From a virus (lineage: Duplodnaviria; Caudoviricetes), in IMG/VR virus record IMGVR_UViG_3300045008_000062, positions 1 through 62,926 of that record: 62,926 nucleotides of DNA; one strand, 5' to 3'. Within the stretch, counting starts at the first letter, position 1. Every line of letters begins with the position of its first letter. The position numbers and the translations under genes were made by a program. This document shows positions 3,500-59,928 of this stretch, piece by piece. Under the pieces are notes generated by a model. It worked only from the letters and a program-made list of their open reading frames with translations. It did not search any database and was not told the origin of the DNA.

Positions 3500-3687
3500 T
3501 TGGACTTGACGAGTGTGAGTGGTGTGGCTGCGATCTCGATGACTGCCTGAGTGATCCATGCAGGGATCGTGCTGAAGCGCACGCCGAGGAGTACTACACC
3601 CCGTCAGGTTTGGACGAGTTCGCGCCCGAGACAACCCGTAACCATTCTCCTGCTCGTCCGTTGGCTCTATTCGAGGAGGAGCAGTGA
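3496..3687 (+). CDS. Hypothetical protein
   Basis: ATGA overlap. Confidence 0.55.
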   Translation: MIGLDECEWCGCDLDDCLSDPCRDRAEAHAEEYYTPSGLDEFAPETTRNHSPARPLALFEEEQ

Positions 3688-8014: not shown

Positions 8015-8335
8015 ATGGATGATGAGATCCGTAACCGTTTGAAAGCCCTTCGGGACAAGCTGGCGCCTGTCCCTGGGTTTCCTCATGTTTTGGCGTCTGG
8101 TGCGGATATCGCTGAGTTGATCGACTGTTTGGTGGCGATGAACCCGAAGCCGAAGATCACGATCACGAACAACATCGCCTCCGAGGATCGTGCCGCGAAG
8201 TACGGCAGTGAGTGTGCGGCGAAGTTCGCGGATGGGCTTACAGGTCTGCCGCCGCGCCTGGTCGCACCTTTGACTGATGTGGTGAACAATCTGACGGTTG
8301 TTCGCCGCCCGTGGTGGAAGTTCTGGGGCAAGTGA
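8015..8335 (+). CDS. Hypothetical protein
   Basis: AGGAG RBS; C-terminal RPWWKFW. Confidence 0.65.
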   Translation: MDDEIRNRLKALRDKLAPVPGFPHVLASGADIAELIDCLVAMNPKPKITITNNIASEDRAAKYGSECAAKFADGLTGLPPRLVAPLTDVVNNLTVVRRPWWKFWGK

Positions 8336-8466
8336 TGAAGGGCAACCTTTGGCGTATCACCGGCCGCGGCAAGATTCACGGCCGAGACTGCTACATGTTC
8401 ACAACGACTGTGGCGGATGTGTACCGAACTTGGTTTATCCCCGTCGATGCGTTCTGGGGCAAGTGA
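8335..8466 (+). CDS. Hypothetical 43-aa protein flanked by 18-bp direct repeats
   Basis: MKGNLWRITGRG...DAFWGK; TGATG overlaps at both ends. Confidence 0.5.
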   Translation: MKGNLWRITGRGKIHGRDCYMFTTTVADVYRTWFIPVDAFWGK

Positions 8467-8693
8467 TGCCCGAGGTGCCGCGGGTCTCGGTGACTCACGC
8501 CTTATCGGGGATGGACCCGGAGCAACGCAAGTGGTTTGTGGCGGGCTTGAGTCTCGCCTACGGTGCCGTGTTCGATGAGTTCGCCCGCGAGGCCGACAGT
8601 CCGAAGATGAGCCTGAGCGCGGTGTTCGAGCGCCTACAAGAGCAGTTTGAGGCCGCGATGACCGAGGTTGCGATCAGTGAGTTCCAGCCGTGA
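8466..8693 (+). CDS. Hypothetical protein
   Basis: TGATG overlap. Confidence 0.5.
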   Translation: MPEVPRVSVTHALSGMDPEQRKWFVAGLSLAYGAVFDEFAREADSPKMSLSAVFERLQEQFEAAMTEVAISEFQP

Positions 8694-11020: not shown

Positions 11021-11749
11021 GTGAACGACGATACGTGTTCAATCGAACAGTGTGAACGCCCCCGCAAGTGTCGGGGTTATTGCGATACGCATTACAAGCG
11101 CTGGCTGCAAGGGCGGCCACTAGAGGCACCCTTCAAGCGCACGCGATGTTCTGAACGTCAATGCACAGTGGATGGCTGTGAGCGGAAGCAATTCGCCCTG
11201 AAGATGTGTCAGTGCCACTACAGCCGCAATCGAAAGTACGGCGACCCCTTACTAGGGCCGCCGCCAGCACAGAAGTTCTCGTCTATCGAGGAACGGTTCT
11301 GGGCGAAGGTGGATAAGACCGGAGACTGCTGGGTGTGGACTGCGCATCTGTTCCATGATGGATACGGCCAGTTCGCCACCAAGACCAAAGGCGTCACGCG
11401 GACATGGAGAGCCCACCGCATCGCCTACGAATGGGCGTACGGCCCCATCCCCGATGGGATGTTGGTCGACCATCGCTGCCACAACCGCCGATGTGTAAAC
11501 CCCGATCACCTACGGTTAGCCACTCGAAACCAGAACAACCAAAACCGTCAGGGCGCGCAAAGCAACAGCAGATCCGGTATCCGCGGGGTGCAGCAACTCC
11601 CAAGCGGGCGATGGCAAGCCCGCGTCCGACATCGCCGACAAGATATCCATGTCGGGATCTTCGATACCGCTGAGCAAGCCGAAGCGGCAGCTATCGCGAA
11701 GCGCAATGAACTGTTCACTCACAACGACAGGGATCGCCTCAGAGTATGA
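11021..11749 (+). CDS. HNH homing endonuclease (2 N-terminal Cys/His zinc repeats, HNH_3, AP2-like)
   Basis: CxxxxC..RGYC..HY repeats; 'ERFWAKVDK..CWVW', 'AHRIAY...DHRCHNRRCVNPDHL'. Confidence 0.9.
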   Translation: MNDDTCSIEQCERPRKCRGYCDTHYKRWLQGRPLEAPFKRTRCSERQCTVDGCERKQFALKMCQCHYSRNRKYGDPLLGPPPAQKFSSIEERFWAKVDKTGDCWVWTAHLFHDGYGQFATKTKGVTRTWRAHRIAYEWAYGPIPDGMLVDHRCHNRRCVNPDHLRLATRNQNNQNRQGAQSNSRSGIRGVQQLPSGRWQARVRHRRQDIHVGIFDTAEQAEAAAIAKRNELFTHNDRDRLRV

Positions 11750-39707: not shown

Positions 39708-39848
39708 GTGTTGAAGAGTCTTCGTGAGCGTTGGCGTTACCTGGCGTGGTTTGACGTGAAGATCGCCCGTTTGTGGCAGTCGGTGGTGTGTGTGGGTGTG
39801 GTGGCCGTGATGGCCCTAATCCTCGGACTCCTGATGTGGTCGCTGTGA
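39708..39848 (+). CDS. Small membrane protein
   Basis: GAGGAGG RBS; one TM; GTGA-coupled to lysin A. Confidence 0.55.
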   Translation: MLKSLRERWRYLAWFDVKIARLWQSVVCVGVVAVMALILGLLMWSL

Positions 39849-41092
39849 CGTACGGCCTCCCGACCGGCACCCGAATCACGTACGGCTCCCCAGGGTTCCC
39901 TTCGTGGGTGTACCAGCTGGCCGACCACTTCGGGCTCAAGGCCAGCACCTACCCCGGCCATCAAGAGTCGCATCGGAACGAGGCGGGATTCGCCGCCAAC
40001 CCGAACAAACTCAACCGCGGCATCGACTGGTCCGGCCATGTCGCCAACATGCAGCGGTTCGCCGACTACCTCATGACCGTCAAAAGTGCTCTTGAGCAGG
40101 TGATCTGGCAGAACCCCAACACTGGGCAGAAAGCCGGTGTCGCTGGGGGCAAAGACGTCACTGTCACCGGCTACTACGCCGCCGACTATGCGGGGCATCG
40201 GGATCACGTCCACACCCGCCAATCATCACCCATCCCACTCCCTGGAGGTTCCGTGGGACTCGCCGACCCCTTCACCGGAGCCGTGTGGTCACCCAACCGA
40301 CGCAAACGCAGCCTCGGCATCCCCCGCTGGATAGCCCTGCATACGCAGGAAGGTGGCCGCACCGCCCGCGGTCTCGCCGGATACCTCGCCAACCCCTCCT
40401 CCCAGGTGTCCTACCACGTTGTCGTTGACGACCACGAGATCCTGAAAGTCGTTTCCGAAGATGACTACCCGTGGGCCGCAGCGAACGCCAACCAATACGC
40501 CTTCCACCTCTGCGGCGCAGGCACCTACGCGGGCTGGTCGCGGGGGAAGTGGCTGGAAACCGACGCCTCGGACGGGAAGAACGAAGACGCCGAACTAACC
40601 AACATGGCAAAAGTCGTCGCCTGGTGGTGCCAGAAATACAACATCCCCCCCGCGTGGATCGGTGGCAGGGGTGTGCCGTGGGGATCGGACGGCATCTGCG
40701 GACATGCTGACTTCGGCGCGTGGGGCGGCGGGCATCATGACCCCGGCCCGAACTTTCCCGTCGATGAACTCATAAGACGGGTGAAAGCGTTCCTCGGCGG
40801 CACCACACCCCCACCACTACCCGCACCACCACCGGTGCAGGCACCGAACACGAACCCCGGCAAGTACGCCGGGGTTCTGTTGTATCGGGGCAGAGCCAAC
40901 AACGTCGAGCAGGTGCGGCTGGTACAGCGCCGACTCAAGGCCGCGTACCGCTCTTACGCGGGCCACTTGGCGGTGGATGGGGATTACGGCCCACAAACCG
41001 AAGCGGCGGTGCGCGAATTCCAGCGCCGCTCAGGACTGATCGCTGACGGAATCGTCGGACCGATGACCGCAGCAGCATTGAAAGCATGGTGA
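39845..41092 (+). CDS. lysA: Lysin A (N-terminal peptidase-like, Amidase_2, peptidoglycan-binding)
   Basis: 'IALHTQEG','VSYHVVVD','ICGHAD..GGHHDPGPNFP'; C-terminal 'VDGDYGPQT..AVREFQ...ADGIVGP.T'. Confidence 0.92.
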   Translation: MTYGLPTGTRITYGSPGFPSWVYQLADHFGLKASTYPGHQESHRNEAGFAANPNKLNRGIDWSGHVANMQRFADYLMTVKSALEQVIWQNPNTGQKAGVAGGKDVTVTGYYAADYAGHRDHVHTRQSSPIPLPGGSVGLADPFTGAVWSPNRRKRSLGIPRWIALHTQEGGRTARGLAGYLANPSSQVSYHVVVDDHEILKVVSEDDYPWAAANANQYAFHLCGAGTYAGWSRGKWLETDASDGKNEDAELTNMAKVVAWWCQKYNIPPAWIGGRGVPWGSDGICGHADFGAWGGGHHDPGPNFPVDELIRRVKAFLGGTTPPPLPAPPPVQAPNTNPGKYAGVLLYRGRANNVEQVRLVQRRLKAAYRSYAGHLAVDGDYGPQTEAAVREFQRRSGLIADGIVGPMTAAALKAW

Positions 41093-41098
41093 CCTGAC

Positions 41099-42100
41099 AT
41101 GGCATGGGCTCCCGCATCCAAACCCGGTGACACCGCCCCCCTCATCTCCGACGCGAAACGGAAACTAGGCGCCTACTCCTACGGGAAAGGGTTGGGCGAA
41201 TCCGACACCTACACCGTGGAGTTCGGTGTCGCCCTGGTGCAGTTCCAGATCAACCGCAACGCCCAAATCCTCAAAGGCCAGGTCCGGGACATGCCCGGCA
41301 TGAACGTCACCGGAATCTTCGACTGGGCGGTGAAGAAGAACCTCGGAATCCTGCCCGAACAAACCCGACCGAAGTTGCCGGTCATCTTCACCATCAACGG
41401 TCATCTGGGCGGATTGTTCGATGGCCCCGCCTACTTCACCGCCCGCGAATTGGAGAAGCGGGGCCGGGTGCGGGTGCAGCCCGTCGGGTATGACAACACC
41501 CGAAAACCGTTCAACAACCTCTCCGGCATTGTGGAGTTGGAACGCCTCCTCAACGATCCGGTCGTCCTCCCGCCGGGGACGCCGTGGGCGAAACTGTCGC
41601 ACTCTCAGGGCTCGATTGTGGACTGCGACCACCACGAACAGTTCGTGGCGCCGAACCTGAACCGGTGGCCCTACAGCGGATTCAAGGGTGGTGTGCGTTT
41701 CGGCAACCCCCGCCGCCCCATGGACACTGTCGCCCCGTGGATCGCAGACCCGCCCCCTAAGGGCACGGAGGGTTTAGACCCCGACTGCCTCGATGAGCCC
41801 ACCCTCGGTGTGGCGGAGTGCAGCAGGGACGGCGACCTCTACGCGAACAAGAAACGCGGCGCGGCAGGCGATTACAAGGAAGCCGTCTACATGGCGATAG
41901 CGCGGGGGAAACTCACCGGCCCGGACAGCCTCGCGAAGGAGATGGGGAACATCGCGGCGATCTTCGCCAACCCTATCGGGGTGTTCGCCCTGTTCCAGGC
42001 CATCATTTCGGGGGTTTCCGGGCTCATCACTTTACGTGAGCATGGCGAGTTCGATTTGCGCCCTTGCATTGATCACACCGCACGAATCCTCGGAATCTAG
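41099..42100 (+). CDS. lysB: Lysin B (mycolylarabinogalactan esterase, cutinase fold)
   Basis: 'QPVGYD','SHSQGS','FGNPRR','DGDLY', late His; follows lysA. Confidence 0.85.
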   Translation: MAWAPASKPGDTAPLISDAKRKLGAYSYGKGLGESDTYTVEFGVALVQFQINRNAQILKGQVRDMPGMNVTGIFDWAVKKNLGILPEQTRPKLPVIFTINGHLGGLFDGPAYFTARELEKRGRVRVQPVGYDNTRKPFNNLSGIVELERLLNDPVVLPPGTPWAKLSHSQGSIVDCDHHEQFVAPNLNRWPYSGFKGGVRFGNPRRPMDTVAPWIADPPPKGTEGLDPDCLDEPTLGVAECSRDGDLYANKKRGAAGDYKEAVYMAIARGKLTGPDSLAKEMGNIAAIFANPIGVFALFQAIISGVSGLITLREHGEFDLRPCIDHTARILGI

Positions 42101-42109
42101 GAGAACATC

Positions 42110-42307
42110 GTGAATTGGCAGCATTATTGGAAAGCGATCCTGACGTTCATCGGGGCGGTAGCGACGAACGCTTTCGCCGACCTGCTGCAGTCCGGGCAGC
42201 CGTGGCCCTCCACGGGCGGCGAGTGGGTCCGCTGGAGCGTCTCCATCATCGGCACCACCTACCTGGTGTACCGGGTCCCGAACAAGCCCATTGAGCCGGC
42301 GACGTGA
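42110..42307 (+). CDS. Holin
   Basis: 'YWKAI', two TM, 'VYRVPNKP'. Confidence 0.75.
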   Translation: MNWQHYWKAILTFIGAVATNAFADLLQSGQPWPSTGGEWVRWSVSIIGTTYLVYRVPNKPIEPAT

Positions 42308-42594
42308 TGCCGGCGTGGGGTCCTGAAACGTGGGGTGACTTCAGTGTTGTCGGGTTCGCGGTGTTCATCACCATCCTCATGTTCGTCGCCCAGGTAAGAG
42401 GGTGGATTGTGTTCGGCCCCCACCACCGCGAAGTCGTCGGGCAGAAAGACCAAACCATCCAGCAGCTATACATCCGGGCCGATAAATCCGATGAGTCCAT
42501 CGCGAAACTGTCTGAGGCGTTGTCGAAGAAGAACGGCACCGAGGATTTGGCGGCGGCGTTGTTAGCGGAGACACGGAAAGCGGTCGGCCAGTGA
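42304..42594 (+). CDS. Lysis-cassette membrane protein
   Basis: One TM, 'RGWIV', coiled coil. Confidence 0.7.
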   Translation: MMPAWGPETWGDFSVVGFAVFITILMFVAQVRGWIVFGPHHREVVGQKDQTIQQLYIRADKSDESIAKLSEALSKKNGTEDLAAALLAETRKAVGQ

Positions 42595-42803
42595 TGTGGC
42601 CGTGGAACCGGCAGCGCGCCGAAGCCGAGAAGGCCCGCCAGGAGTTCATTGAGGCGCAGCGGAAAGCGAAAGCCGCTGAGGAGCGGCGTAAGGCAGTTGA
42701 CCGGCTGATCGGGAGGTCGATGGCGACATCAGCGCGCCTGCGCCGGGAGGTTGAACGGAACGGGTTCTCGGATCTACTACAGCAGGCTTGGGGGGCACGT
42801 TGA
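42591..42803 (+). CDS. Lysis-cassette hypothetical protein
   Basis: MWPW N-terminus, 'RNGFSDLL' C-terminus. Confidence 0.7.
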   Translation: MMWPWNRQRAEAEKARQEFIEAQRKAKAAEERRKAVDRLIGRSMATSARLRREVERNGFSDLLQQAWGAR

Positions 42804-43186
42804 TGGTGTGGCTGTACGCGGCCGGGGTCGCGGGGATTGTCGGCACCATGCTCAGCGACATCTGGTTCGACATCGACTACCGGGTTGCGGCGAACGTCTC
42901 CCTGATTTATGTGGCGTCGTTGACGACGATCTTCCACTTGTTGTATGCGTTGCGGTCGAATTGGCGGGCGAACCGGGTGGGGAAGATCTTCTTCGTGAAG
43001 ACGGTGTTCCTGCCGGTGATGTTGTGGCAGATCGTGTTGTCGACGTGGTGGAACGAGGATTACCCGTTCCGGCAGCAGATCCGGTTCGCTATCTACAGTT
43101 TGATGGTGGTGGCGTATTTGGCGATGGTGATCACGTTGTGGAGTGAGCAGCGGGCGGACCGTCGAGACCCGGACCGGGAGCTGTGA
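42803..43186 (+). CDS. Membrane protein (4 TM, holin-like)
   Basis: Four hydrophobic segments; 'RSNWRANRVG'. Confidence 0.7.
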   Translation: MVWLYAAGVAGIVGTMLSDIWFDIDYRVAANVSLIYVASLTTIFHLLYALRSNWRANRVGKIFFVKTVFLPVMLWQIVLSTWWNEDYPFRQQIRFAIYSLMVVAYLAMVITLWSEQRADRRDPDREL

Positions 43187-43341
43187 GCGCGATCAAGGGT
43201 GACCCGAGTATTGAGCGGGGTTTCGCGCTGCTGGTGATTTTCATAGCGGTGTCTGCGGCGATCATCGCTGTTGTCCTGCTCTACAAGTAGAATGGATGTT
43301 TAGGAGCTGAACCGGACCCACTGTCCGTGTAGGCGCCTTCA

Positions 43342-43384
43342 GCCGCCCCGCATGAGCTTCGGGCTCAGAGCGGGGCGGCCTTTT
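43342..43384 (+). terminator. Intrinsic terminator after the lysis cassette
   Basis: GCCGCCCCGC/GCGGGGCGGC stem with inner TGAGC/GCTCA stem, followed by TTTT. Confidence 0.75.
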
Positions 43385-43459
43385 CTGTTCGGAAAGTTCA
43401 CCCTTTTCGGCAGAGCGTGCCATATGCGGGAACGGTGTCCCGTGCGCGACAATATTGGG

Positions 43460-43735
43460 GTGCGGATCACGGTCAGGACTGGGGATGTGGCGATCCTGTT
43501 CGGTGCCGCCGCGATAGCCGTGTACGAGGCCCGGGTCTCTGATGATGAGGATTTGATCTCGCGTCGGATCGCGGCGTATCGCAGGCATCCCGTGGGGAGG
43601 ATCATCGCGGACACGGTGATCATCGCTACCGCGATCCACCTCTGCGAATATGCAAGCCCTGAGTGGGATGCCTATCACTGGCTGATGCGCTGGTTTAGGC
43701 CCTCAGCGTCGTCTCCAGATGAGCCAACCAGCTAG
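43460..43735 (+). CDS. Membrane protein
   Basis: Two hydrophobic segments; start uncertain. Confidence 0.55.
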   Translation: MRITVRTGDVAILFGAAAIAVYEARVSDDEDLISRRIAAYRRHPVGRIIADTVIIATAIHLCEYASPEWDAYHWLMRWFRPSASSPDEPTS

Positions 43736-43795
43736 TACGGCCAGCACTACAGCCCCCAAAGGCACAACAAGTTCACGGTCTCGTTTCTCACCCAT
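43703..43795 (-). CDS. 30-aa single-pass membrane peptide (not in ORF track)
   Basis: MGEKRDRELVVPLGAVVLAVLAGWLIWRRR. Confidence 0.55.
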   Translation of the reverse strand: MGEKRDRELVVPLGAVVLAVLAGWLIWRRR

Positions 43796-43877
43796 GAGAG
43801 GTGTCTACCCCGTTGACGCGGATGCTGATTGCGTAATGCACTACTCGGTTTCTGAACCGAGACCTACCTGAAATACC

Positions 43878-43906
43878 TGCGCCCCCTCTACGGAGGGGGC
43901 GCATTT
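43878..43906 (+). terminator. Intrinsic terminator hairpin
   Basis: TGCGCCCCCTC-TACG-GAGGGGGCGCA-TTT, perfect 11-bp stem. Confidence 0.75.
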
Positions 43907-44000
43907 GTCGTTGGCGGATGTTAGGATTCGACACATGTTCGCTCACCGATCGAGTTCCTCCCTGCGACTCTCGTCGTAGCGGAGGGCGCTTGCCCTCACA

Positions 44001-44083
44001 GGAGGGTGAGCATCAGGTGATGCAGTCCGGTTGCTAACCGGATACGGATTCTCCCCCGTCTGGTTCAAGTCCAGCACCCTCCG
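44001..44083 (+). tRNA. tRNA-Ser(GCT)
   Basis: Acceptor GGAGGGT/ACCCTCC, anticodon arm TCCGG-TTGCTAA-CCGGA, long variable arm, TTCAAGT T-loop, G73; no encoded CCA. Confidence 0.85.
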
Positions 44084-44093
44084 CGCAACACAT

Positions 44094-44178
44094 GGAAGGT
44101 GCCGCCGGATGGTCGGCAAGCGGTCTTGAAAACCGTGGTACGCATTGTGTCGTAGGGGTTCGACTCCTCCACCTTCCG
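44094..44178 (+). tRNA. tRNA-Ser(TGA)
   Basis: Acceptor GGAAGGT/ACCTTCC, anticodon arm GCGGT-CTTGAAA-ACCGT, long variable arm, TTCGACT T-loop, G73. Confidence 0.85.
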
Positions 44179-44179
44179 C

Positions 44180-44253
44180 GCTCCTGTAGCCCAATTGGTA
44201 GAGGCACCAGATTTAGGTTCTGGTCAGTGCGAGTTCGAATCCCGCCAGGAGCA
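44180..44253 (+). tRNA. tRNA-Leu(TAG), short variable arm
   Basis: Acceptor GCTCCTG/CAGGAGC, anticodon arm CCAGA-TTTAGGT-TCTGG, TTCGAAT T-loop, A73. Confidence 0.9.
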
Positions 44254-44255
44254 CG

Positions 44256-44412
44256 TCGGGTCGACCTTGCGGTGACGACCAGGGCTAGCGCCGTAGGCGA
44301 GGATCGGCGGCGGACACATCCAAATGGCCCTGGCGACCCGGTTCGTCGTGTTTGGGGGATAGGATTGAGCGGGGCCGTAAGCGCTGACACGCTCCACGGC
44401 CCCTGACCCCAA
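44256..44412 (+). ncRNA. Candidate structured RNA(s) downstream of the tRNA cluster
   Basis: Nested stems TCGGGTCG/CGACCCGG and CCAGGGCTA/TGGCCCTGG; second hairpin GGGGCCGT/ACGGCCCC. Confidence 0.45.
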
Positions 44413-44446
44413 CCAGAATGCTGAGGAATCCCAGAAGGGGCTAACC

Positions 44447-44671
44447 ATGAAGACTAAAGGACGTTGGTCCTGCGAGCGATGCTCACACGACTATGACGAA
44501 CATGGACGGAACGGCGCGGCCTGTCAGCACGTCCACTTTTCCGAGAGCCGCATCGTTCATGGCAACCCTGATGATGGCGTCACCGTGAATCGGGATTGGA
44601 CGGCTTGTGAGTGCCTGTATTTCGTTGGCGCAGTCGTTCCGGGGTCGGTGCGGGAGATGGAGCAGCGATGA
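44447..44671 (+). CDS. Array gene 1, Cys/His-rich hypothetical protein
   Basis: AAGGGG RBS; ends SVREMEQR. Confidence 0.7.
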   Translation: MKTKGRWSCERCSHDYDEHGRNGAACQHVHFSESRIVHGNPDDGVTVNRDWTACECLYFVGAVVPGSVREMEQR

Positions 44672-44970
44672 GCGAGCTGACAGCGAAGTGCGAAGCTCCC
44701 TGGTGGCTGCCTAGTCGTTCGTCGAAGCCTGAGCATCACGTCATGGTGTGGTGCGGCGGAGCGCACGCCCACGTAGACCTGAGCCCGATGTTCTGGACGA
44801 ATAGTCCTCGTCGGGACTTCCCGCACATTGTGCTCGGCTATGAGGATGAGGAGCCGTTGCAGCCAGAGATTCACGGCGCTAGTGAGCTTGCTGATTGGGC
44901 GAAACTGCTGGTGTGGCTGAATGCGCAGCCGTGGCCGGATTGGTCGGTGCGGGAGATGGAGCAGCAGTGA
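44668..44970 (+). CDS. Array gene 2, hypothetical protein
   Basis: ATGA overlap; ends SVREMEQQ. Confidence 0.7.
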   Translation: MSELTAKCEAPWWLPSRSSKPEHHVMVWCGGAHAHVDLSPMFWTNSPRRDFPHIVLGYEDEEPLQPEIHGASELADWAKLLVWLNAQPWPDWSVREMEQQ

Positions 44971-45110
44971 GCGGGCCGAGGCCGGTCATTCTTTACGCCC
45001 CGAGCACTCGGGCACCCCAAACTTGGGTCAAAATTCTTCGAGAACCGCACTCTGTCGACATCACCCCGGATGAAGTGAAGTTCATCTTCACGGGCGAGAT
45101 GGAGCAGTGA
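44967..45110 (+). CDS. Array gene 3, hypothetical protein
   Basis: GTGA overlap; ends GEMEQ. Confidence 0.65.
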   Translation: MSGPRPVILYAPSTRAPQTWVKILREPHSVDITPDEVKFIFTGEMEQ

Positions 45111-45340
45111 TGAGCGGCTGTCTTCCCTTCTTCCCGGGCATGACTCCACGGTTCACGATCCGCGTGTGGGACAGGCCCCGGCAGGACGACCTCGCCAGAC
45201 TCCTGGGGGAACCGGCACCGCCCGCTGAGCCCGTTGCGGACATCGAGGTTGATTCCAACGCTGACACGGAGCTGCACTTCAATCACTGGGGGTATGAACT
45301 GATCCCACAGAAGCAGTTGACCGCAGGGGAGCAGCGATGA
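45110..45340 (+). CDS. Array gene 4, hypothetical protein
   Basis: TGATG overlap; ends AGEQR. Confidence 0.65.
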   Translation: MSGCLPFFPGMTPRFTIRVWDRPRQDDLARLLGEPAPPAEPVADIEVDSNADTELHFNHWGYELIPQKQLTAGEQR

Positions 45341-45774
45341 GCGACGCCGATTGGGAGTGCAGCGAGGCGGAGTTTCGCATCCGGTGCGCCGCAGCATCCG
45401 TACGGAAGGAACGAGCGACCGCGCCGCAGTGGCTCACCGACCTACAGCAAGCCACCGACGATTACGTCACCCAGATCCTCAGCGGAAACCCGCCCACCCC
45501 GCCGTGCACCCACCGCTACTGCCGAGACCAGGGCTACGGGCTGTGTATGGGTGTAGCGGGTGCACAGATTGACATGATGGAAGACAACGGACTATCCCGG
45601 CGGGAAAGCGTTCCTGAAGGTGGTCAGTCAGTGGTGAGCGATCCTGCCGACGAGTGCCGCCATGAGCACATCACCACCATGGACTGTCTACCGCCGATCC
45701 ACTGGTGCGTCGACTGCCACCAACAACTCCCGCTTTCTGATCGCGAGAAGCAGCTCTACCGCGACTACACCTGA
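45337..45774 (+). CDS. Array gene 5, hypothetical protein
   Basis: ATGA overlap; two Cys/His clusters. Confidence 0.65.
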   Translation: MSDADWECSEAEFRIRCAAASVRKERATAPQWLTDLQQATDDYVTQILSGNPPTPPCTHRYCRDQGYGLCMGVAGAQIDMMEDNGLSRRESVPEGGQSVVSDPADECRHEHITTMDCLPPIHWCVDCHQQLPLSDREKQLYRDYT

Positions 45775-45775
45775 T

Positions 45776-46114
45776 CTACGGGCATAGGTGTTTCACTGCC
45801 GTGTCCACGATGATCGGGGCCGAGTAGGCGGACGGCATCAACCCTTCCCCGTGACTGAGCCAGTCCACGACCATGGTCTTGGGTTTCCCGCCGGCCAGCT
45901 GGTCGCACACCCACCGCCCGGTTTGCAGGGCTGCGGTGTAGTCCTCGAACTGCCCCCAGCACACGTTCTGCCGGCATTCCCGTGGCCGCTGGTCGTGGTC
46001 GATCATCCCAGCCTGATCCATAGCGGTGATGTACGACGTCTCATCAGCCCGTGCTGGAGCCGCCAGCGCGACTGCTGCGATGCTGATCCCGACTATCCAA
46101 CGCCCTGCCCCCAT
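45776..46114 (-). CDS. Secreted DUF732-like protein
   Basis: Signal peptide ending APARA; 'AL..GR.VC..L..G...AV.HLCP'. Confidence 0.75.
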   Translation of the reverse strand: MGAGRWIVGISIAAVALAAPARADETSYITAMDQAGMIDHDQRPRECRQNVCWGQFEDYTAALQTGRWVCDQLAGGKPKTMVVDWLSHGEGLMPSAYSAPIIVDTAVKHLCP

Positions 46115-46268
46115 GCGTAGAGGGTAGCTGGAATCGGGCCGGTTCTGTCCGGTGTTGTCCCTTGACGCCGTCAAAGCCTCCCACCGTTTCCCCAGTTCGT
46201 CCGAGTTCTTTTCAGTCCTGTCAAGATCGGAGAAATCGTGTCTGACCTGCTAGAACACCGTATCAGCA

Positions 46269-46294
46269 AGGGGTTCGAATCCCCTTAGCTCCAC
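46269..46294 (+). other. attP common core (3' end of host tRNA-Ala)
   Basis: AGGGGTTCGAATCCCCTTAGCTCCAC = T-arm plus acceptor 3' strand of an actinobacterial tRNA-Ala; about 480 bp upstream of the tyrosine integrase. Confidence 0.85.
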
Positions 46295-46371
46295 TTTTGA
46301 CCTGCGGAAACACCCCCCCATTTTGTTAGTCAAACGGTTTGTCAATACGGTGGTCGGGTAAAATTGTCGGC

Positions 46372-46773
46372 ATGAGCCGCCCTGTGCCACTTGAAGCTTT
46401 GCTTGACGAGTCCTTTCGGCGATCGTTTGACGCCCGAACCCGCCCCGGTCTGTGGGGGTGTAGGGAGTGGGCTGGGTCAGTTCAGCGGGGCTACGGGCAA
46501 GTCCAGTGTCAAGGCCGCACCCTGCTGGTGCACCGGGTGGCGTGGATGACACACCACAATCGGCACCTGCCTAGCCGAACGGCCGTTGATCACCTCTGTT
46601 GCAACAAGCTCTGCGTTAACCCGTACCATCTTGAGGCAGTCACTCATCAGGTAAATGGGTGGCGGATCACTGAGCCGCCACCAGGTTGGGTTCCAGTCGC
46701 GAGAGGTAGACGTGTACGCGTCGAAGCCCGCCACCTGTACACGCGCACCGGGAAACCGCGAAGGGTAGCCTGA
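46372..46773 (+). CDS. HNH endonuclease (HNH_3)
   Basis: 'CREWAG....GYG','VHRVAW','VDHLCCNKLCVNPYHLEAVT...N'; TAAAAT 7 nt upstream. Confidence 0.85.
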   Translation: MSRPVPLEALLDESFRRSFDARTRPGLWGCREWAGSVQRGYGQVQCQGRTLLVHRVAWMTHHNRHLPSRTAVDHLCCNKLCVNPYHLEAVTHQVNGWRITEPPPGWVPVARGRRVRVEARHLYTRTGKPRRVA

Positions 46774-47855
46774 TGGCGTCTATCAGGAAGCGCCCTCGGG
46801 GCGACGGAACTGTTAACTACTCCGTGCTGTATGCACTCAACGGCAGGCAGTCATCATTGCCGTTCGACTCGGAGAAAGCCGCCGCGGCATTCAAAGCCGC
46901 AGTCGACGTGCATGGCGCGCAGAAAGCTTTGGAGATGTACGGGCTTTCTATCGGTCCCCGCCGCCGGACCGGGCTGACGGTGGAGCAGTGGGTGAGGCAC
47001 CACATCGACCACCTGACCGGGGTGGAGCAGTACACCAAAGACAAGTATGAGGCGTACCTACGTCGGGACATCGGACCGCACATAGGGGGAAAGGTCCTCA
47101 CGGAATTGTCACGTGACGATATTTCTCGGTGGGTGCAGATGCTTGAGAAAACCCCGCACCGGGGGAGGTTGCCCGCCCCTAAGACGGTGAAGAACAAAGT
47201 GCAGTTCCTCGCTGGGGCTTTGAACGCTGCCGTGAAGGCGGGAAAGATCCCCTCTAACCCAGCCGCTGACGCCCGCATCACCCGCACCGGAGACATCCAC
47301 GAGCACAGATACCTGACCCGCCTGGAGTTCGACCTCCTCCTAGAGTCCACGACGGAGTACTGGCGGCCCATGGTGGAGTTCCTGGTTCGCACGGGTTTCC
47401 GGTGGGGTGAAGCGTCAGCGCTGAAACCGTCCGACGTCAACATGGACGAGGGGACGGTGAAGGTTGCGCGGGCATGGAAGAAGGACTCCACCGGCTACCG
47501 GATCGGCCCCCCGAAAACCCGTAAGTCGAACCGCACGATCAAAGTGTCGAAGAAGGTTCTTGAAAAGCTCGACTACTCGAATGAGTGGCTGTTCGTGAAC
47601 CGAGACGGCGGACCGGTGAGGTACCACGGGTTCAAGGGCAGGGTGTGGGACAAGGCGGTGAAGAAAGCCAAGCTGGAGCCCAAACCCACCCCGCACGATT
47701 TAAGACATACCCATGCGTCGTGGCTGCTGAACGACAACGTTCCGATGGCGGTGGTGTCCCGCCGGTTGGGCCACGAAACCATCGGCATCACCGTCGACCT
47801 GTACGGGCATATCGACAAGTCCAGCGACGAAGCTGCGGCCGAGGTAGCCGGCTGA
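46773..47855 (+). CDS. int: Tyrosine integrase
   Basis: TGFRWGE, PKT, HDLRH, LGH, LYGH catalytic motifs. Confidence 0.95.
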   Translation: MASIRKRPRGDGTVNYSVLYALNGRQSSLPFDSEKAAAAFKAAVDVHGAQKALEMYGLSIGPRRRTGLTVEQWVRHHIDHLTGVEQYTKDKYEAYLRRDIGPHIGGKVLTELSRDDISRWVQMLEKTPHRGRLPAPKTVKNKVQFLAGALNAAVKAGKIPSNPAADARITRTGDIHEHRYLTRLEFDLLLESTTEYWRPMVEFLVRTGFRWGEASALKPSDVNMDEGTVKVARAWKKDSTGYRIGPPKTRKSNRTIKVSKKVLEKLDYSNEWLFVNRDGGPVRYHGFKGRVWDKAVKKAKLEPKPTPHDLRHTHASWLLNDNVPMAVVSRRLGHETIGITVDLYGHIDKSSDEAAAEVAG

Positions 47856-47856
47856 A

Positions 47857-48183
47857 TCATGGCCCCCATATCTCGCTGACGATCGCCCGACCGCTGGTTA
47901 TGTGGCAGCCGTAGGTCACTCTGACGGGGGCGTTGAACCCGTTCACGGTGCGGACCTGGCCGCGTACCTCCGCTGGTTGGCCGCCTTCGGCTGGACGGTA
48001 GGTGCGGTGGTCGAACTCGGCTACGTCGGGATGTTTTAGCCGCGAAAGCACCGCTGTTTCGCAGGCTGATTGCGCGTCCACTTTCGCGCTGGCGCGGTCC
48101 CAATCTTCACCGCACCCGCAGAGGAGCGCGAGCACAGTCAGTGTCAGCGCCACTGTACGTAATTGCGAAAACAACGATTTCAC
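47857..48183 (-). CDS. Putative lipoprotein
   Basis: Signal peptide with LCGC lipobox; 'C..AV..RLK.P..AEF...NGFNA' domain; start uncertain. Confidence 0.65.
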   Translation of the reverse strand: MKSLFSQLRTVALTLTVLALLCGCGEDWDRASAKVDAQSACETAVLSRLKHPDVAEFDHRTYRPAEGGQPAEVRGQVRTVNGFNAPVRVTYGCHITSGRAIVSEIWGP

Positions 48184-48408
48184 CCCTAGTTGGCGAACGG
48201 ATCGGACACCGAAACCGCGGCAGGAAACTGTTTCCGTAGGAAAATGGCATTCCGTGGCATCGACTGACAACCGGTGGGCACCCTCGTAACCGCACGTTCA
48301 CTTTCACGGTAATCAATTGGCTGCCGGGGAGGCAGCCCCAACGAGGGGGCCACAGTGGACACACATCCCATGCCGCACATACAGAGGGAACCCACCGGCT
48401 CGCTGTCA

Positions 48409-48978
48409 CTACGACGCCGTATCCGATCCCTCATCATCGACATCCCCCCCTCCACCTGGACTCCCGCCGAGGCCGCCCGTGTCCTCGGAGTGCTCTCCGA
48501 GATCAGGAGTGATCGACTTCGTAACGGTAACGTCGTCTATCTCAGGCGGCGACAGGGCCGCTAGATCCTCCTTCTCTTTACTCGCTTTGCTCGATGCTCC
48601 CGCCGACGCGTTAGCTTCCAGGACATTGCGTTCTCCTCTCATCCGGCGCCGAATCTCGGCAATTAGTTCATCGTCTGTGGCCCGCTGAAGCGGGCCGGGT
48701 GGAGGTTGATGGTTGTACTCATCGGTGCCGAAGCCTGCGATCCGCAGGGCTTCGGACACGTCCCAGTCGACGGCCTTGGCCGCGGCGATGACGGTCGCGG
48801 CAGTGGTGCCGATGGGGATGTCCTGGCCGCGCATGCGTTGGTAGCCCGACTCGAGTTGGTACCAGCGCCCTGAGCTGATCGCGCCGTGCGTGCGTCGTGC
48901 GGCTGCGCGGACGGCGAGCCCGGCTTTTAGGCGGGCAGCTTTCAAGGCTGGTCCCAGTGGCCAGTCAGGTCTGCTCAT
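48409..48978 (-). CDS. Immunity repressor (XRE-type HTH)
   Basis: 'GLAVRAAARR...ISSGRWYQLESG','ATDDELIAEIRRRM'; divergent from Cro. Confidence 0.85.
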   Translation of the reverse strand: MSRPDWPLGPALKAARLKAGLAVRAAARRTHGAISSGRWYQLESGYQRMRGQDIPIGTTAATVIAAAKAVDWDVSEALRIAGFGTDEYNHQPPPGPLQRATDDELIAEIRRRMRGERNVLEANASAGASSKASKEKEDLAALSPPEIDDVTVTKSITPDLGEHSEDTGGLGGSPGGGGDVDDEGSDTAS

Positions 48979-53591: not shown

Positions 53592-54401
53592 ATGGGTCGC
53601 CAAGTGCGTCGTGTGCCGCTCGACTTCGATTGGCCCACAGACAAGGTCTGGCAAGGCTTCCTGATGCCCGACAAGTACGACGAGGAGCCATGCCCCGACT
53701 GTTACAGCACCGACTACACCGGGAAACGCGTCTCGGGTTCCGGTGAGACAGCGGCGTCGAAGTGGCTGCACGCAGCCTTGTACCTAGTCGGGATGATGGC
53801 AGACGATATTCGGGCGCAGTCGTTCGAGGGCACCGAATACGAGTTCACCCCGCACGGCGACAGTAGGTCCAAGCTGCATCCGTATCTGGCGACGTTGCAT
53901 TCCATCAACGTGTATGAGAAGCGCAGACCCTCCGCCGACATCGTGGATCTCGTCAACGGGATCACTGGACGCGACAACTTAAGCTTGGGGACTGGATCGG
54001 ATTTCGCGTACGCGGCGCGGAAAGTCCTCGTGGAAGCTGCTGGCCTGCCCGAGAAGTGGGGGTGGTGCCCAACCTGTGATGGGCACGGCTCTATCGAGAT
54101 GTACCCCGGACAGAGGACAGAAGGGGAGAAGTGGTCCGAGGAGGACCACGAACCGCCGACCGGTGAGGGTTGGCAGTTGTGGGAGACCGTCTCGGAGGGA
54201 TCTCCTATCTCTCCGGTGTTCGACAGCCCGGAGGGGTTGGCGCGGTGGATGTCGTCTGACAGCTACCGGTGGGGGATTTCCACTCCGATGGAGTATGAGG
54301 CTGCGTTGCGGTTCGTGACCGGCGACGGCTGGGCACCAAGCATGGTTCTCGGATCGACGGGTCTTGTCTCGGGTGAGCAGTGGATCGCGGAGGAGTCCTG
54401 A
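53592..54401 (+). CDS. Hypothetical protein with DnaJ-like CxxCxGxG
   Basis: GGAGG RBS; 'MGRQVRRVPLDFDWP','GWQLWETVSEGSPISPVF'. Confidence 0.8.
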   Translation: MGRQVRRVPLDFDWPTDKVWQGFLMPDKYDEEPCPDCYSTDYTGKRVSGSGETAASKWLHAALYLVGMMADDIRAQSFEGTEYEFTPHGDSRSKLHPYLATLHSINVYEKRRPSADIVDLVNGITGRDNLSLGTGSDFAYAARKVLVEAAGLPEKWGWCPTCDGHGSIEMYPGQRTEGEKWSEEDHEPPTGEGWQLWETVSEGSPISPVFDSPEGLARWMSSDSYRWGISTPMEYEAALRFVTGDGWAPSMVLGSTGLVSGEQWIAEES

Positions 54402-54730
54402 TGAGGCCGCGCAGGGTGCGGCACGTGCACCGTCTCCTCGCCTCAATGGCCGTCGGAGCCTTAGGTGCTGCTGCGGTGTTGTTCTCCGCTGAGGCCCGAG
54501 CTGATGTGTTGTCGAATTACGTCGCCGACAACGCCCACCTGGTGTGCATGTTCTTGGATGACTTCCCGTCGGTGGAGGGGTTCAACACGGTCGCCGCTGC
54601 AATCGTGGACGACGGCCTGTCGGAGGACGCTGCCGCGGCGGTTGTTGCCCGGTCGGTGATCGCGTTGTGCCCGGAGCATTTGCGGGAGTTGAACCTGTTC
54701 GTTGCGCGCTGGCAGGCGGTGCAGGCATGA
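54401..54730 (+). CDS. Secreted DUF732-like protein
   Basis: Signal peptide; 'VC..LD...SV...CPEH'. Confidence 0.65.
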   Translation: MRPRRVRHVHRLLASMAVGALGAAAVLFSAEARADVLSNYVADNAHLVCMFLDDFPSVEGFNTVAAAIVDDGLSEDAAAAVVARSVIALCPEHLRELNLFVARWQAVQA

Positions 54731-55388: not shown

Positions 55389-55741
55389 GGTGCCCGTATT
55401 GCGGTCGGGAGATCGTGGTGTCTCAGTCGCGGTTCGTGGTGCATAACGTGGAGAACGTTCCCCGTAACGGCACGATCTGCCCGACCTCAAACCAGCGCAT
55501 CCCCATTACCGGGGTGTCGAATTCGGATCACGCGAACCGTGCTGATGTGTTGATGGATTTGGCGTGTCAGGTGCAGGACCAGGACCCGCACATTGTGTGG
55601 CAGTACTTGACGTGCCTGCCTTCCGATGAGTTGCAGCGGTTGTTGATGTTCGCTTTGGCGGCTCTGCCGGTGGACCGCACTCTGGATGAGATGTGGGGTT
55701 GGGTCAAAGCCCTACCGACTTCGAGATTGGCGGCGGTCTGA
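55385..55741 (+). CDS. Hypothetical protein
   Basis: GTGA overlap; CPYC. Confidence 0.65.
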   Translation: MRCPYCGREIVVSQSRFVVHNVENVPRNGTICPTSNQRIPITGVSNSDHANRADVLMDLACQVQDQDPHIVWQYLTCLPSDELQRLLMFALAALPVDRTLDEMWGWVKALPTSRLAAV

Positions 55742-56397
55742 TGGAAGAGCGTTGGTTGCCCATACCTGGATACGAGGGCTCCTACGAGGTGTCAGACCTC
55801 GGGCGGGTGCGCTCCATTGACAGGACTATCTGGAATCGCGGGAGTCGATTCGTCCGAGGACGGCTGCTAGCTGCGCACCCAAGTACTTTCGGTCACCCGC
55901 GTCTATATCTATCGCGAGACGGTCGGCGGAAGTATTTCGGCGTTCATCAGCTAGTGATGCTGGCCTTTGTCGGACCCCGTCCAGATGGCATGGAAGTGCG
56001 TCACCTGAATGGGGACGAATCCGACCCGCGCCTCTGCAACCTGGCATACGGAACGCATCGGGAAAACATGGCAGACATGGTCGCCCATGGTCGAAGTGTC
56101 TTGAAAGACCGCTGCATCAATGGTCATGAGATGTCGGGCGAGAATCTGTGGTGGTATCGCGGGTACCGCAGATGCCGCTCCTGTAAGCGCGAGCACAACC
56201 GACTGTCGGAAGAACGTAAGCGGAGAGCCAAAGGTGTTACCGGTAAACCAAAGACGCATTGCGCCCAGGGGCACTTGTTAGCTGGTGACAACCTATATGA
56301 GACATCGTCCGGCCATCGTGGGTGTAAGGCCTGTCGCAGGGAGTTTCAGCGGCGCTATCGGGCGAAGCTTAAAGCCAGGCTGAGGGAGGCGTCGTGA
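55741..56397 (+). CDS. NUMOD4-HNH homing endonuclease
   Basis: 'W.PIPGYEG.YEVSDLGRVRS' NUMOD4; 'VHQLV..AF...EVRHLNG....NL.YGT..EN'; two C-terminal C..GH...C..C repeats. Confidence 0.92.
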   Translation: MEERWLPIPGYEGSYEVSDLGRVRSIDRTIWNRGSRFVRGRLLAAHPSTFGHPRLYLSRDGRRKYFGVHQLVMLAFVGPRPDGMEVRHLNGDESDPRLCNLAYGTHRENMADMVAHGRSVLKDRCINGHEMSGENLWWYRGYRRCRSCKREHNRLSEERKRRAKGVTGKPKTHCAQGHLLAGDNLYETSSGHRGCKACRREFQRRYRAKLKARLREAS

Positions 56398-57055: not shown

Positions 57056-57565
57056 GTGAACCCGACAGCCACATTGGCGCTTTGTAAATGGTTGAAGGAC
57101 CGCATCAAGGATTGGGAGACGGAAGCTAAACGCGACCTCGGACTGTTGCCGGGGGAACGTAAAGCCGCTGTGGTCGACGGAACCGTCCTGGGGCACGTGA
57201 CTATGGCGAAGGGCCGCAAAACCGCCCGTGTAGCCAACGAGGCCGCTGTGTTGGCGTGGGTGAAAGCCCACCACCCCACCGAGGTAGAAGTCTCCGAGCA
57301 GGTTCGGCCCGCGTTCCTGAAGGCACTGCTGGATGACGCCGCGAAGAAGGGCGCGTTCATCGACTCCGATGGGGTGGTGATCGACGGCCTGATCGAAGTC
57401 GTTGAGGGCGACCCGTACCCGATATCAAAGCTGGCTGATGATGCGGACCTCGCTATCGCCGGGTTGTTGGGGCGTGGCGCGTTAGGCGTGAACGGTCTGA
57501 AAGCGTTGCCGGAGCCGGAAGACCGGTTTACTCAGGATCGCCGCGCCGCAGGGGTGGAGGACTGA
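57056..57565 (+). CDS. Hypothetical recombination-module protein
   Basis: GTGA overlap; directly upstream of the AAA ATPase. Confidence 0.7.
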   Translation: MNPTATLALCKWLKDRIKDWETEAKRDLGLLPGERKAAVVDGTVLGHVTMAKGRKTARVANEAAVLAWVKAHHPTEVEVSEQVRPAFLKALLDDAAKKGAFIDSDGVVIDGLIEVVEGDPYPISKLADDADLAIAGLLGRGALGVNGLKALPEPEDRFTQDRRAAGVED

Positions 57566-58554
57566 TGACACCGAGGACGAGACAGCCCAGCGGTGTGGCG
57601 AACTGGCCCATGATCCTGCTGGAAGGCCCGGACTCCGTGGGAAAGTCCTACCAGGCCGCGCAGTTCACCGGCTGCCCGAAAACCGGGCAAGCGTACTGGC
57701 TGGACATCGGCGAAGGGCAAGCCGACGAATACATCAATGTCCCCGGAGCCGACTACCTGATCTTGGATCATGACGGGTCGTGGGCGGACATCCTCAACCA
57801 GATCCGGGAAGCATCTAAGGATGAGCAGGAATCAGAGTTGCCGGCGGTGTTGGTGGTGGATTCCGCGTCGAACGTGTGGGACATGCTGAAGGCGTGGACT
57901 GACACTCGGGCGCGGAAGTCGAAGAACGGGAAACGGATTCTGGCTGCCGACCCGGACGCTGAGGTGTCCGCGGCCCCGAACTTGTGGAATGACGCCAACG
58001 CCCGCCATCACCAGTTTGTGAAGGCTTTGCACGAGTTCCCGGGCATCGTCGTGTTGACCGCTCGCGGCAAGGAGACGGTGGCGATGGACAAGGATGGCCG
58101 ACCGATCCCGAACGCGAAGGACTATTCGGTGGAGGTCAACAAGTACCTGCCGTACCGGGTTTCTGCTCATGTTCGGTTGTCGCGGGATAACCCGCCTGTG
58201 GTGGTGTCGTTCCGGTCCGCGACTAACGGTTTGAGGCCGGGTGTGGATGAGCCGAAGAAGTATCCCGAGTTCACGTTGGACCATCTGGTGTTCGACGTGA
58301 TGGGGCTTCAGGCGGCGCAATCTCGTGAGGTGACTGAATTGGTCACCGATGAGGGCGTGCTGGCCGATGAGGCCCGCAGGGAGTTGGGGGCGTTCATTCG
58401 GGAGAAGAAGCTGTCCTACAAGAGGATTGTGGAGCGTTTCTACGGTGAGCGTGAGGAGCAGTTGGAGGCGACTAGGGACGCTCAGGCGGTGCGGGATCTG
58501 TTGCAGTCGTTGCGGGATGAGGTCGCGGTGGACGAAGCGCAGGCCGCGTCATGA
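57565..58554 (+). CDS. AAA_24 / Sak4-like ATPase (recombination)
   Basis: Walker A GPDSVGKS, Walker B LVVDS, 'VVLTARGKE'. Confidence 0.8.
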   Translation: MTPRTRQPSGVANWPMILLEGPDSVGKSYQAAQFTGCPKTGQAYWLDIGEGQADEYINVPGADYLILDHDGSWADILNQIREASKDEQESELPAVLVVDSASNVWDMLKAWTDTRARKSKNGKRILAADPDAEVSAAPNLWNDANARHHQFVKALHEFPGIVVLTARGKETVAMDKDGRPIPNAKDYSVEVNKYLPYRVSAHVRLSRDNPPVVVSFRSATNGLRPGVDEPKKYPEFTLDHLVFDVMGLQAAQSREVTELVTDEGVLADEARRELGAFIREKKLSYKRIVERFYGEREEQLEATRDAQAVRDLLQSLRDEVAVDEAQAAS

Positions 58555-59441: not shown

Positions 59442-59553
59442 TGCGTTGGTGGCATGTGCTGCGGGGTCACCGAATCAGGACCGTGGGGGCTCGTATCCCG
59501 AACGTTGTTCCATCGACGTGGGAGAAATGCACGTGCGGGAAGGTCTGGTACCT

Positions 59554-59928
59554 ATGAGCCGCCCCACTGGTTTCCCGCCGAAGGTGCGGCGGCTGATTAT
59601 GGAACGCGCCGGTATCGAGGGTGACTGGGTGCGCGACGAGGTGTCGGGGATGTGGGTTCATGTTGAGGACGCCCAACTGCACCACCGAATTCCACGGGGT
59701 TCCGGCGGGTCGAAGCGCCCGGAGGTGAACCAGTCGGCGAACGGACTGGTGCTGTCACCGACCACGCATTACCGGGTCGAGGTGAATCGAAGAGATGCCC
59801 TGAAGAAGGGCTGGTTGATTTCTAAGTTGTCCGTGGAGTTGCCGTTTTCTGTTCCTGTGTTGCTGCATCACGGATGGGTGGTGCTCGATAACCAGGGTGG
59901 ATGGGAACGAACCGAGGAGGCGGCATGA
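59554..59928 (+). CDS. Degenerate HNH-like protein
   Basis: 'QLHHRIPRGSGG......ANGLVL....H..VE..R..A...GWL'; zinc-binding Cys residues absent. Confidence 0.7.
   Translation: MSRPTGFPPKVRRLIMERAGIEGDWVRDEVSGMWVHVEDAQLHHRIPRGSGGSKRPEVNQSANGLVLSPTTHYRVEVNRRDALKKGWLISKLSVELPFSVPVLLHHGWVVLDNQGGWERTEEAA

Follow-up and report, generated by a model that had tools for sequence, protein, structure and literature searches.

How do small genes with no likeness to one another come to share almost the same boundary? The question is raised by a row of five small open reading frames (ORFs), here called g1 to g5, at positions 44447-45774 of the IMG/VR virus record IMGVR_UViG_3300045008_000062. The window, that is, the whole stretch of DNA analysed, is the full record of 62926 nucleotides (nt), which is rated 100% complete and has a G+C content of 61.4%. 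A preliminary description of this DNA had pointed to a repeat that joins each gene of the row to the next and had proposed that it is a portable linker for expression and recombination, so that genes could be added, removed or shuffled as cassettes, possibly by insertion next to the leader as in integrons. We consider it probable, at roughly 60%, that recombination left the repeat as a footprint over a translational-coupling junction and that it also acts as a short-homology hotspot.

Copies of the junction repeat

The four junctions of the array, J1 to J4, all lie on the plus strand. J1 (44643-44680) holds the end of g1, two GGAG motifs, an ATGA overlap of stop and start codons and the first codons of g2. 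J2 (44942-44979) is identical to J1 over 24 of 24 nt and continues with a GTGA overlap and the start of g3. J3 (45092-45117) consists of GGGCGAGATGGAGCAG followed by a TGATG overlap and AGCGG, and J4 (45328-45344) is GGAGCAGCGATGAGCGA, identical over 17 of 17 nt to the right part of J1. The encoded tails of g1 to g4 are SVREMEQR, SVREMEQQ, GEMEQ and GEQR; these tails, the GGAG motifs, the overlapping stop and start codons and the Met-Ser starts are all as the preliminary description gave them.

The 24-mer shared by J1 and J2, GGTCGGTGCGGGAGATGGAGCAGC, occurs exactly at 44643-44666 and 44942-44965, as had been reported, and has no other match in the 62926 nt even when up to three mismatches are allowed; the mean expected by chance in 100 dinucleotide-preserving shuffles was 0.00. 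The likeness of the two junctions extends to 38 nt at 89% identity. An apparent further extension upstream, seen in a MAFFT alignment, was dropped because the residues concerned are native to each family. The 17-mer GGAGCAGCGATGAGCGA has five matches at up to three mismatches (0.27 expected; 0 of 100 shuffles reached five). Four of these, at 44659, 44958, 45101 and 45328, are the array junctions, and a weaker fifth lies at 3675; the 17-mer is exact at J1 and J4 and carries two to three mismatches at J3 and J2. GAGATGGAGCAG is found without change at the first three junctions (44654, 44953 and 45096), and a core of GGAGCAG, three nt and TGAGCG is present at all four. With a spacer of zero to four nt, the genome contains GGAGCAG-N0-4-TGAGCG at five places (0.025 expected), namely the four consecutive array junctions and 3678. 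The copies had been described as progressively shorter along the array; their left boundary does recede, but J4 shares 17 contiguous nt with J1 and J3 only 12.

When the 123 candidate overlap junctions of the genome are compared, the 24-mer and the 17-mer of the array, together with an 18-mer pair at 8.3 kb, stand out as the longest words in common. Nearly all other junction pairs share at most 10 nt, whereas the array junctions share 12-24 nt. The repeat is not an assembly artefact, because independent Logan contigs of the sequencing runs X9 and X11 bridge J1, J2 and J3 with 0 differences. The array junctions are copies and not chance resemblances.

Similar junctions were also seen elsewhere in the window. 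The identical 18-mer GTTCTGGGGCAAGTGATG lies at 8320-8337 and at 8451-8468, flanking an ORF of 43 amino acids (aa) at 8335-8466, and both this ORF and the preceding 106-aa gene end in FWGK followed by TGATG. No relatives of these genes were found in GenBank phages. Given this second pair, the process that leaves such repeats is not special to the tRNA-proximal array. A fifth junction resembling J1 to J4 (GGAGCAGTGAGCGAGCTG) is located at 3678-3695, 40 kb from the array, where a 63-aa gene (3496-3687) ends in EEEQ and the next gene starts with MSEL, like g2. A reading of the motif as a stoperator-like repressor site was dropped, as it occurs only inside the array and at the one site at 3678.

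The five genes and their tails

The genes joined by the repeat are g1 (44447-44671, 74 aa, rich in Cys and His), g2 (44668-44970, 100 aa), g3 (44967-45110, 47 aa, with a GTG start), g4 (45110-45340, 76 aa) and g5 (45337-45774, 145 aa), all on the plus strand, and none of them matches a Pfam or PHROG family. When the bodies were compared without the shared tails, all ten pairwise local alignments gave z scores between -0.7 and +0.8 (300 shuffles each). The bodies of g1 to g5 are not paralogous, which agrees with the preliminary description and disposes of the diverged tandem paralogs that it had named as a finding against its own proposal.

Sequence comparison assigns g1, g2, g4 and the central part of g5 to four different small families. 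One relative of g1 was found (P0009, 79% identity), and g2 has five full-length relatives (63-81% identity) in addition to P0028. The g4 family comprises five small relatives; 9 of the 15 matches to g4 were its own near-identical form or long proteins with short repeats and were judged irrelevant. The relatives of g5 (one of 80 aa, one of 83 aa and one in locus L006; 80-85 aa) cover only its residues from about 30 to 100. The count of five small ORFs thus stands with the qualification that the last is composite: g5 is made up of an N-terminal extension (residues 1-29), a core, and a Cys/His-rich C-terminal extension from about 45606. An in-frame, junction-like GTGAGCGAT at 45634 inside g5 looks like the relic of a gene start. 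For g3, tblastn against GenBank phages gave no relative, and the large protein collections were not searched with it.

These families occur in other surroundings. A relative of g2 stands among other small coupled genes, unlike the neighbours in the array (L002), a relative of g4 is found in a 77-kb phage with different neighbours (L005), and the relative of the g5 core lies between a lysin and an integrase (L006); the remaining array genes are absent from the L005 and L006 records. Neither blastn, in near and distant modes, nor tblastn with g1 to g5 detected a relative of the array among GenBank phages. Scans of IMG/VR with the single integrase and g5 proteins and with a g2 profile had no matches, and profile scans with g4 and g5 found one distant locus each. 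Two weak Halobacillus matches to the g2 profile in a genome collection were judged unrelated, and the ESM Atlas offered only leads below 0.9 for g5.

Conservation within the families ends where the repeat begins. All five full-length relatives of g2 conserve ...LNAQPW(P/R)(D/E)W(S/T) and then diverge. In the window, the family-conserved part of g2 ends with ...PWPDWS, its last seven residues are the tail of the g1 type, and the 24-mer begins at the Trp-Ser codons. In place of the SVREMEQQ of g2, P0002 has SVREMERQ and P0001 has SLPGVEQR, the tails of P0003-P0005 are longer and unrelated, and P0028 has yet another. The g1 relative P0009 ends in PGSVREMEQP; since it keeps this ending, the SVREMEQ tail appears to be native to the g1 family and foreign to g2. 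Conservation in the g4 family stops at ...QK(M/Q)LTAG, beyond which the five small relatives differ. Near-identical variants of g4 end in TAGEQQ and TSGMEQR, and the EQR tail of g4 in the window is derived from the junction. Because conservation in the g2 and g4 families stops at the repeat, a unit of tail, Shine-Dalgarno sequence, stop/start overlap and next gene seems to have been joined to unrelated genes at differing points. At the g2 joint both parents share GGTCG, preceded by CCGG, as would be expected after a crossover guided by microhomology.

The tails are predicted to lie outside the fold and to be disordered. In the AlphaFold2 model of g2 (mean pLDDT 77) residues 96-100 fall below 50, as do residues 66-76 in the poor model of g4 (pLDDT 63.9). 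The g2 model had no fold match in the PDB (Foldseek best E 0.84; VIA-align best Z 4.2).

The SVREME tail is already borne by P0002 (81% identical to g2 by BLASTP) and by P0009, so the graft predates a divergence of about 20% in protein. The event that looks most recent is the one at g2, which stands behind g1 and not at the leader, and the suggested leader-proximal insertion is not borne out.

Breakpoints in related contigs

Contigs of four sequencing runs were aligned to positions 42000-48500 at 80% likeness, and the joints are taken from that single table. Of these joints, eight start or end between 43855 and 45801. Counted by ends, seven fall within the array, and three of the seven (44943, 44671 and 44975) are at repeat edges. 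From 44943, the second base of J2, through g3 and g4 into g5, a contig of run X12 differs from the window at 4 of 496 nt (99% identity); the flank of the same contig at 43705-43855 has 23 differences in 151 nt (about 85% identity). This contig joins 44442 to 44943, with at most 266 unaligned nt in place of the tRNAs, g1 and g2, and retains the leader piece 44401-44442. Contigs of run X13 carry a 24-nt piece of J1 that is joined from 44671 to 45778, and a 23-nt piece of J2 that is joined from 44975 to 45423, the start of the g5 core. Within g5, position 45423 is the boundary between the N-terminal extension and the core, and 45590 and 45605 mark the boundary between the core and the C-terminal extension. 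One X12 contig has 33 other letters in place of the whole C-terminal extension (45606-45770). Further relatives are without the tRNAs (43855 joined to 44401) or without the interval from the terminator to the DUF732 gene (43911 joined to 45801).

A fixed order of the five genes in relatives, which had been named as evidence against a linker, is therefore not kept, and gene content differs. Because gene content varies and some of the breakpoints sit at repeat edges, recombination at or beside the repeat is a fair reading. No joints between one copy of the repeat and another, no circles and no deletion variants were seen in X9 and X11, whose low-depth contigs say nothing on absence.

The generic half of the repeat

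In translational coupling, stop and start codons overlap as ATGA or GTGA and the upstream Shine-Dalgarno sequence lies inside the preceding gene. All four array junctions have this overlapping stop/start and Shine-Dalgarno form, and on the strength of this layout g1 to g5 are probably translationally coupled. The 16-nt right half of the repeat is itself a common coupling junction of high-GC phages. Its core 16-mer, GGAGCAGCGATGAGCG, is found exactly at 95 IMG/VR loci. Of these, 80 (L018-L097) were examined and 20 were dropped (rows with the same 64-nt context, with G+C below 55%, or within 180 nt of the locus end), leaving 60 high-GC sites. A reading-frame test based on G+C at third codon positions classed 31 of them as true overlaps, in which one gene ends at TGA and the next starts at ATG; at 17 sites only the downstream gene was supported, at five only the upstream gene, and at seven neither. 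Both bases before GGAG are purines at 39 of the 60 sites, and the sites have unrelated flanks. The 31 true overlaps among the 60 sites suggest that GGAGCAGCGATGAGCG is a strongly preferred coupling junction in unrelated high-GC phages. In the window itself, 22 copies of RTGAGCG on the plus strand stand against four on the minus strand, and they lie mostly at ORF starts.

Given this generic right half, the identity of J1 and J4 is weaker evidence of copying than that of J1 and J2. The idea of a portable recombination linker keeps its footing in the copies themselves and in the breakpoints at their edges, but with the right 16 nt present at 95 IMG/VR loci part of the likeness attributed to a linker is shared translation grammar. 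IMG/VR has no further occurrence of the 24-mer GGTCGGTGCGGGAGATGGAGCAGC or of a degenerate 21-mer.

Origin of the repeat

We infer a repeat of two layers. The generic layer would be GGAG, five nt, ATGA and GCG, that is, a Shine-Dalgarno sequence, an overlapping stop and start, and a Ser codon. The lineage-specific layer would be the last seven to eight codons of g1, a copy of which recombination would have added to g2 and g3 at their 3' ends and, in weaker form, to g4. Related phages or prophages may have crossed over out of register at a few shared bases, which for g2 would be GGTCG after CCGG, and such a crossover would join the body of one gene to the tail, the ribosome-binding site and the downstream genes of another genome. 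Each event would exchange a native, disordered C-terminal tail and flank the inserted gene with direct repeats. Further deletions, insertions and gene conversions could then arise through general recombination, with the existing repeats of 17-38 nt as short-homology substrates, perhaps with help from an AAA_24 protein that the phage encodes and with no dedicated site-specific enzyme. The AAA_24 protein is encoded at 57565-58554 on the plus strand (PF13479, E 5.4e-12). We take Sak4 to fall in this family; annealases of the Sak4 type are core-only RecA-like ATPases with single-strand annealing activity. It belongs to PHROG 1366, whose function is unannotated, and has no NCBIfam match. The preliminary description had named a Sak4-like ATPase as a candidate enzyme; the gene is present and its product could plausibly catalyse exchange at short homologies, but no observation links it to the repeat.

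Several observations weigh against a footprint and hotspot over a coupling junction. The sides of the key joints measure only 23-42 nt, and joints of this kind can come from repeats or from other organisms; the joints are read from their two sides only, in relatives known from metagenome contigs alone. Four of the seven joint ends in the array lie away from the repeats, three inside g5 (45423, 45590 and 45605) and one at its stop (45771), so that the expected placing of breakpoints at the repeat holds for part of them. A sigma-70-like promoter was sought in 43300-46900, and none was found for the predicted, coupled expression of the array. Finally, J1 and J2 are still identical over 24 of 24 nt despite the age of the graft, for which gene conversion, selection at the nucleotide level or swapping of alleles would be needed. 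This last point leans toward a repeat maintained by selection as a recombination linker, with which an annealase of the AAA_24 or Sak4 type would swap accessory genes between co-infecting phages and prophages, the homologous-recombination counterpart of a cassette array.

We regard such a selected linker as unlikely, if worth keeping in view. In its favour, the identity of J1 and J2 has persisted while the relatives of g1 and g2 with the same tail differ by about 20% in protein; three joint ends meet repeat edges and pieces of the junctions adjoin non-orthologous partners; near-identical g4 proteins carry tail variants; an AAA_24 gene is present; and phage annealases are reported to recombine short, diverged sequences (PMC3945230, PMC2327257, PMC5499656; relaxed recombination by such annealases is also the subject of PMC5928155). 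The copies, however, differ in extent and have no fixed unit, neither the 24-mer nor the degenerate 21-mer recurs in IMG/VR, other breakpoints fall inside g5, the low-depth contigs of the near-identical runs X9 and X11 hold no circles or deletion variants, and selection for evolvability is hard to tell from a passive footprint. Bolder still, and to our mind rather improbable, is the proposal that the repeat is an actively used homology cassette, with an annealase acting on 17-38 nt to insert, delete and swap alleles of accessory genes between co-infecting phages and prophages, each gene being preceded by one and the same unit of tail, ribosome site and start. Were it true, the array would be a translation-ready counterpart of the integron that needs no recombinase of its own, and the generic 16-nt core in unrelated high-GC phages would widen the reach of exchange.

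Pure convergence on the same Shine-Dalgarno sequence, spacing, ATGA overlap and second Ser codon draws on the 31 true junctions and 17 gene starts at which the 16-nt core stands among the 60 unrelated viral sites, on RTGAGCG as a common start context in this genome and on the fifth junction 40 kb away at 3678. It cannot yield 24 identical nt with seven synonymous positions, nor explain GAGATGGAGCAG three times in a row or five instances of GGAGCAG-N0-4-TGAGCG, four of them consecutive, where 0.025 are expected. Convergence is accordingly refuted for J1 and J2 and may hold only for J4, and as an account of the whole array it is very unlikely. We give even less weight to a functional peptide, in which the tail (V)REMEQ(R/Q) would be kept as a degradation or interaction signal. 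The tail is retained in P0009 and P0002 and all four tails are in the same reading frame, but the identity is at the nucleotide level and includes wobble positions, the tails dwindle to EQR, other members of the families end in unrelated sequence, disorder is predicted for the tails, and a ribosome site rich in GGAG, read in that frame, gives GAG-ATG-GAG.

The least credible accounts, which we would hardly entertain, are a site-specific cassette system of the integron type and diverged tandem paralogs. An integron cassette array has attI, an adjacent IntI, and attC sites, whose imperfect inverted repeats form single-strand hairpins at the 3' end of every cassette. The likeness lies in small, co-oriented and unrelated genes each followed by a repeat at its 3' end, with a tyrosine recombinase 1 kb away; the differences are that the array has no attC-type imperfect palindrome, no IntI and no attI by the integrase, and that its repeats are coding and carry a ribosome site. 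When 78-nt windows around J1 to J4 were folded as DNA on both strands, the eight folds gave z scores from -1.74 to +1.73 with no attC-like hairpin and the repeat mostly unpaired, and no inverted repeats were found within the junctions. The tyrosine integrase (46773-47855, plus strand), proposed earlier as a candidate enzyme of the array, is of the ordinary phage type (PHROG 1, E 7e-74; PF00589) and scores far below the cut-offs of the integron-integrase models (TIGR02249, 34.9 bits against 265; NF011946, 25 bits against 435). It adjoins its own putative attP, a fragment resembling a tRNA 3' end. Tandem paralogy, for its part, conflicts with the unrelated bodies and with the families that these genes have elsewhere.

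Comparison with known systems

The closest precedent for a footprint of this kind is the mycobacteriophage Island3 (Cluster I). As Pope et al. (2011, PMC3029335) describe it, gp68 is without homologues and agrees with the upstream gp67 in its 18 C-terminal residues and in about 50 bp; its authors attribute this to recombination between short repeats, 'fundamentally similar' to exchange at boundary sequences, and regard it as the first mycobacteriophage example. Like gp67 and gp68, g1 and g2 are unrelated and yet share SVREMEQ and 24 of 24 nt. Island3, in contrast, has one pair only and a sister phage, Brujita, that is described as being without the gene (PMC3029335), whereas the array has four consecutive junctions with nested copies of 24-38, 12 or more, and 17 nt, a second pair elsewhere in the genome, and relatives known from metagenome contigs.

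According to the same account and a further one, the boundary or linker model of lambdoid phages has short shared sequences that flank non-homologous genes, with homologous recombination shuffling the modules (PMC3029335, PMC3233612). Those linkers are defined by comparing many genomes, whereas the copies of the array lie within one genome, overlap coding tails and are in part a generic junction of Shine-Dalgarno and ATGA. Ordinary coupled junctions of this genome are likewise distinguished from the array by their shorter shared words.

Mosaic boundaries in phages tend to fall at gene boundaries, and the locus bears on why. Two models compete, as one source sets them out: in the first, short boundary sequences are the sites of homologous exchange; in the second, illegitimate joints arise at random and are filtered by selection (PMC3233612). 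The array shows nested junction copies in a row that look to have been grafted at differing points onto the native ends of unrelated genes. If the repeats have been used repeatedly, the two models would be linked, with illegitimate joints creating the short homologies for later exchanges. As it stands, the locus is a clear case of a known process and not a new system.

Genomic setting of the array

The window is the whole genome of a temperate siphovirus of 62.9 kb without close cultured relatives. Scans with PHROG and Pfam found terminase, portal, capsid and tape measure genes, two endolysins (39773-42100), a holin (42788-43186) and a repressor (48412-48978, minus strand), as well as an antirepressor, an excisionase, WhiB and several HNH endonucleases. 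The closest GenBank phages are Mycobacterium phages that match over only a few per cent of the length, and the host is probably a mycolic-acid actinobacterium. Among the sequencing runs in which the phage occurs, lake-water metagenomes predominate; activated sludge and one coded organism contain it in part. The array of g1 to g5 is probably an accessory operon in the variable slot between the lysis genes and tRNAs on one side and the putative attP and integrase gene on the other.

Upstream of the tRNAs lies a strong terminator hairpin (43878-43903), the sole strong terminator found in 43300-46900. ARAGORN called three tRNAs on the plus strand: tRNA-Ser(gct) at 44001-44084 and tRNA-Ser(tga) at 44094-44179, both of which match the Rfam tRNA-Sec model below threshold, and a 75-nt class-I tRNA with anticodon tag at 44180-44254 (Rfam tRNA, 58.7 bits). 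By its anticodon the third is a tRNA for Leu, yet it is without a long variable arm, which bacterial tRNA-Leu usually has, and its identity is uncertain. The last 22 nt of this tRNA and the next 84 nt (44233-44338) match the transfer-messenger RNA (tmRNA) gene of about 190 Bxz1-like (Cluster C) mycobacteriophages, at its 3' end and in the spacer that follows it, with 86-87% identity; ARAGORN called no tmRNA in the window. The 192-nt leader from the tRNAs to g1 (44255-44446, plus strand) folds no more stably than its shuffles (z -0.36).

The array is closed by a convergent DUF732 gene (45776-46174, minus strand; PF05305, E 1.7e-8). This gene adjoins the putative attP, where prophage-expressed genes often sit, and a second DUF732 gene is located at 54380-54730 on the plus strand. 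The putative attP core, read from the sequence at about 46262-46294 on the plus strand, resembles the T-arm and acceptor strand of a tRNA 3' end and has GTTCGAATCCC in common with a tRNA of the phage. Between it and the integrase gene, PHROG and Pfam place a free-standing HNH endonuclease gene (46339-46773, plus strand). At least three more HNH genes are found at 11021-11749, 55693-56397 and 59446-59928. The HNH gene beside the integrase is precisely missing from one relative (run X13), in which 46345 is joined to 46772 with 13 other letters instead, an absence that is typical of a free-standing homing gene.

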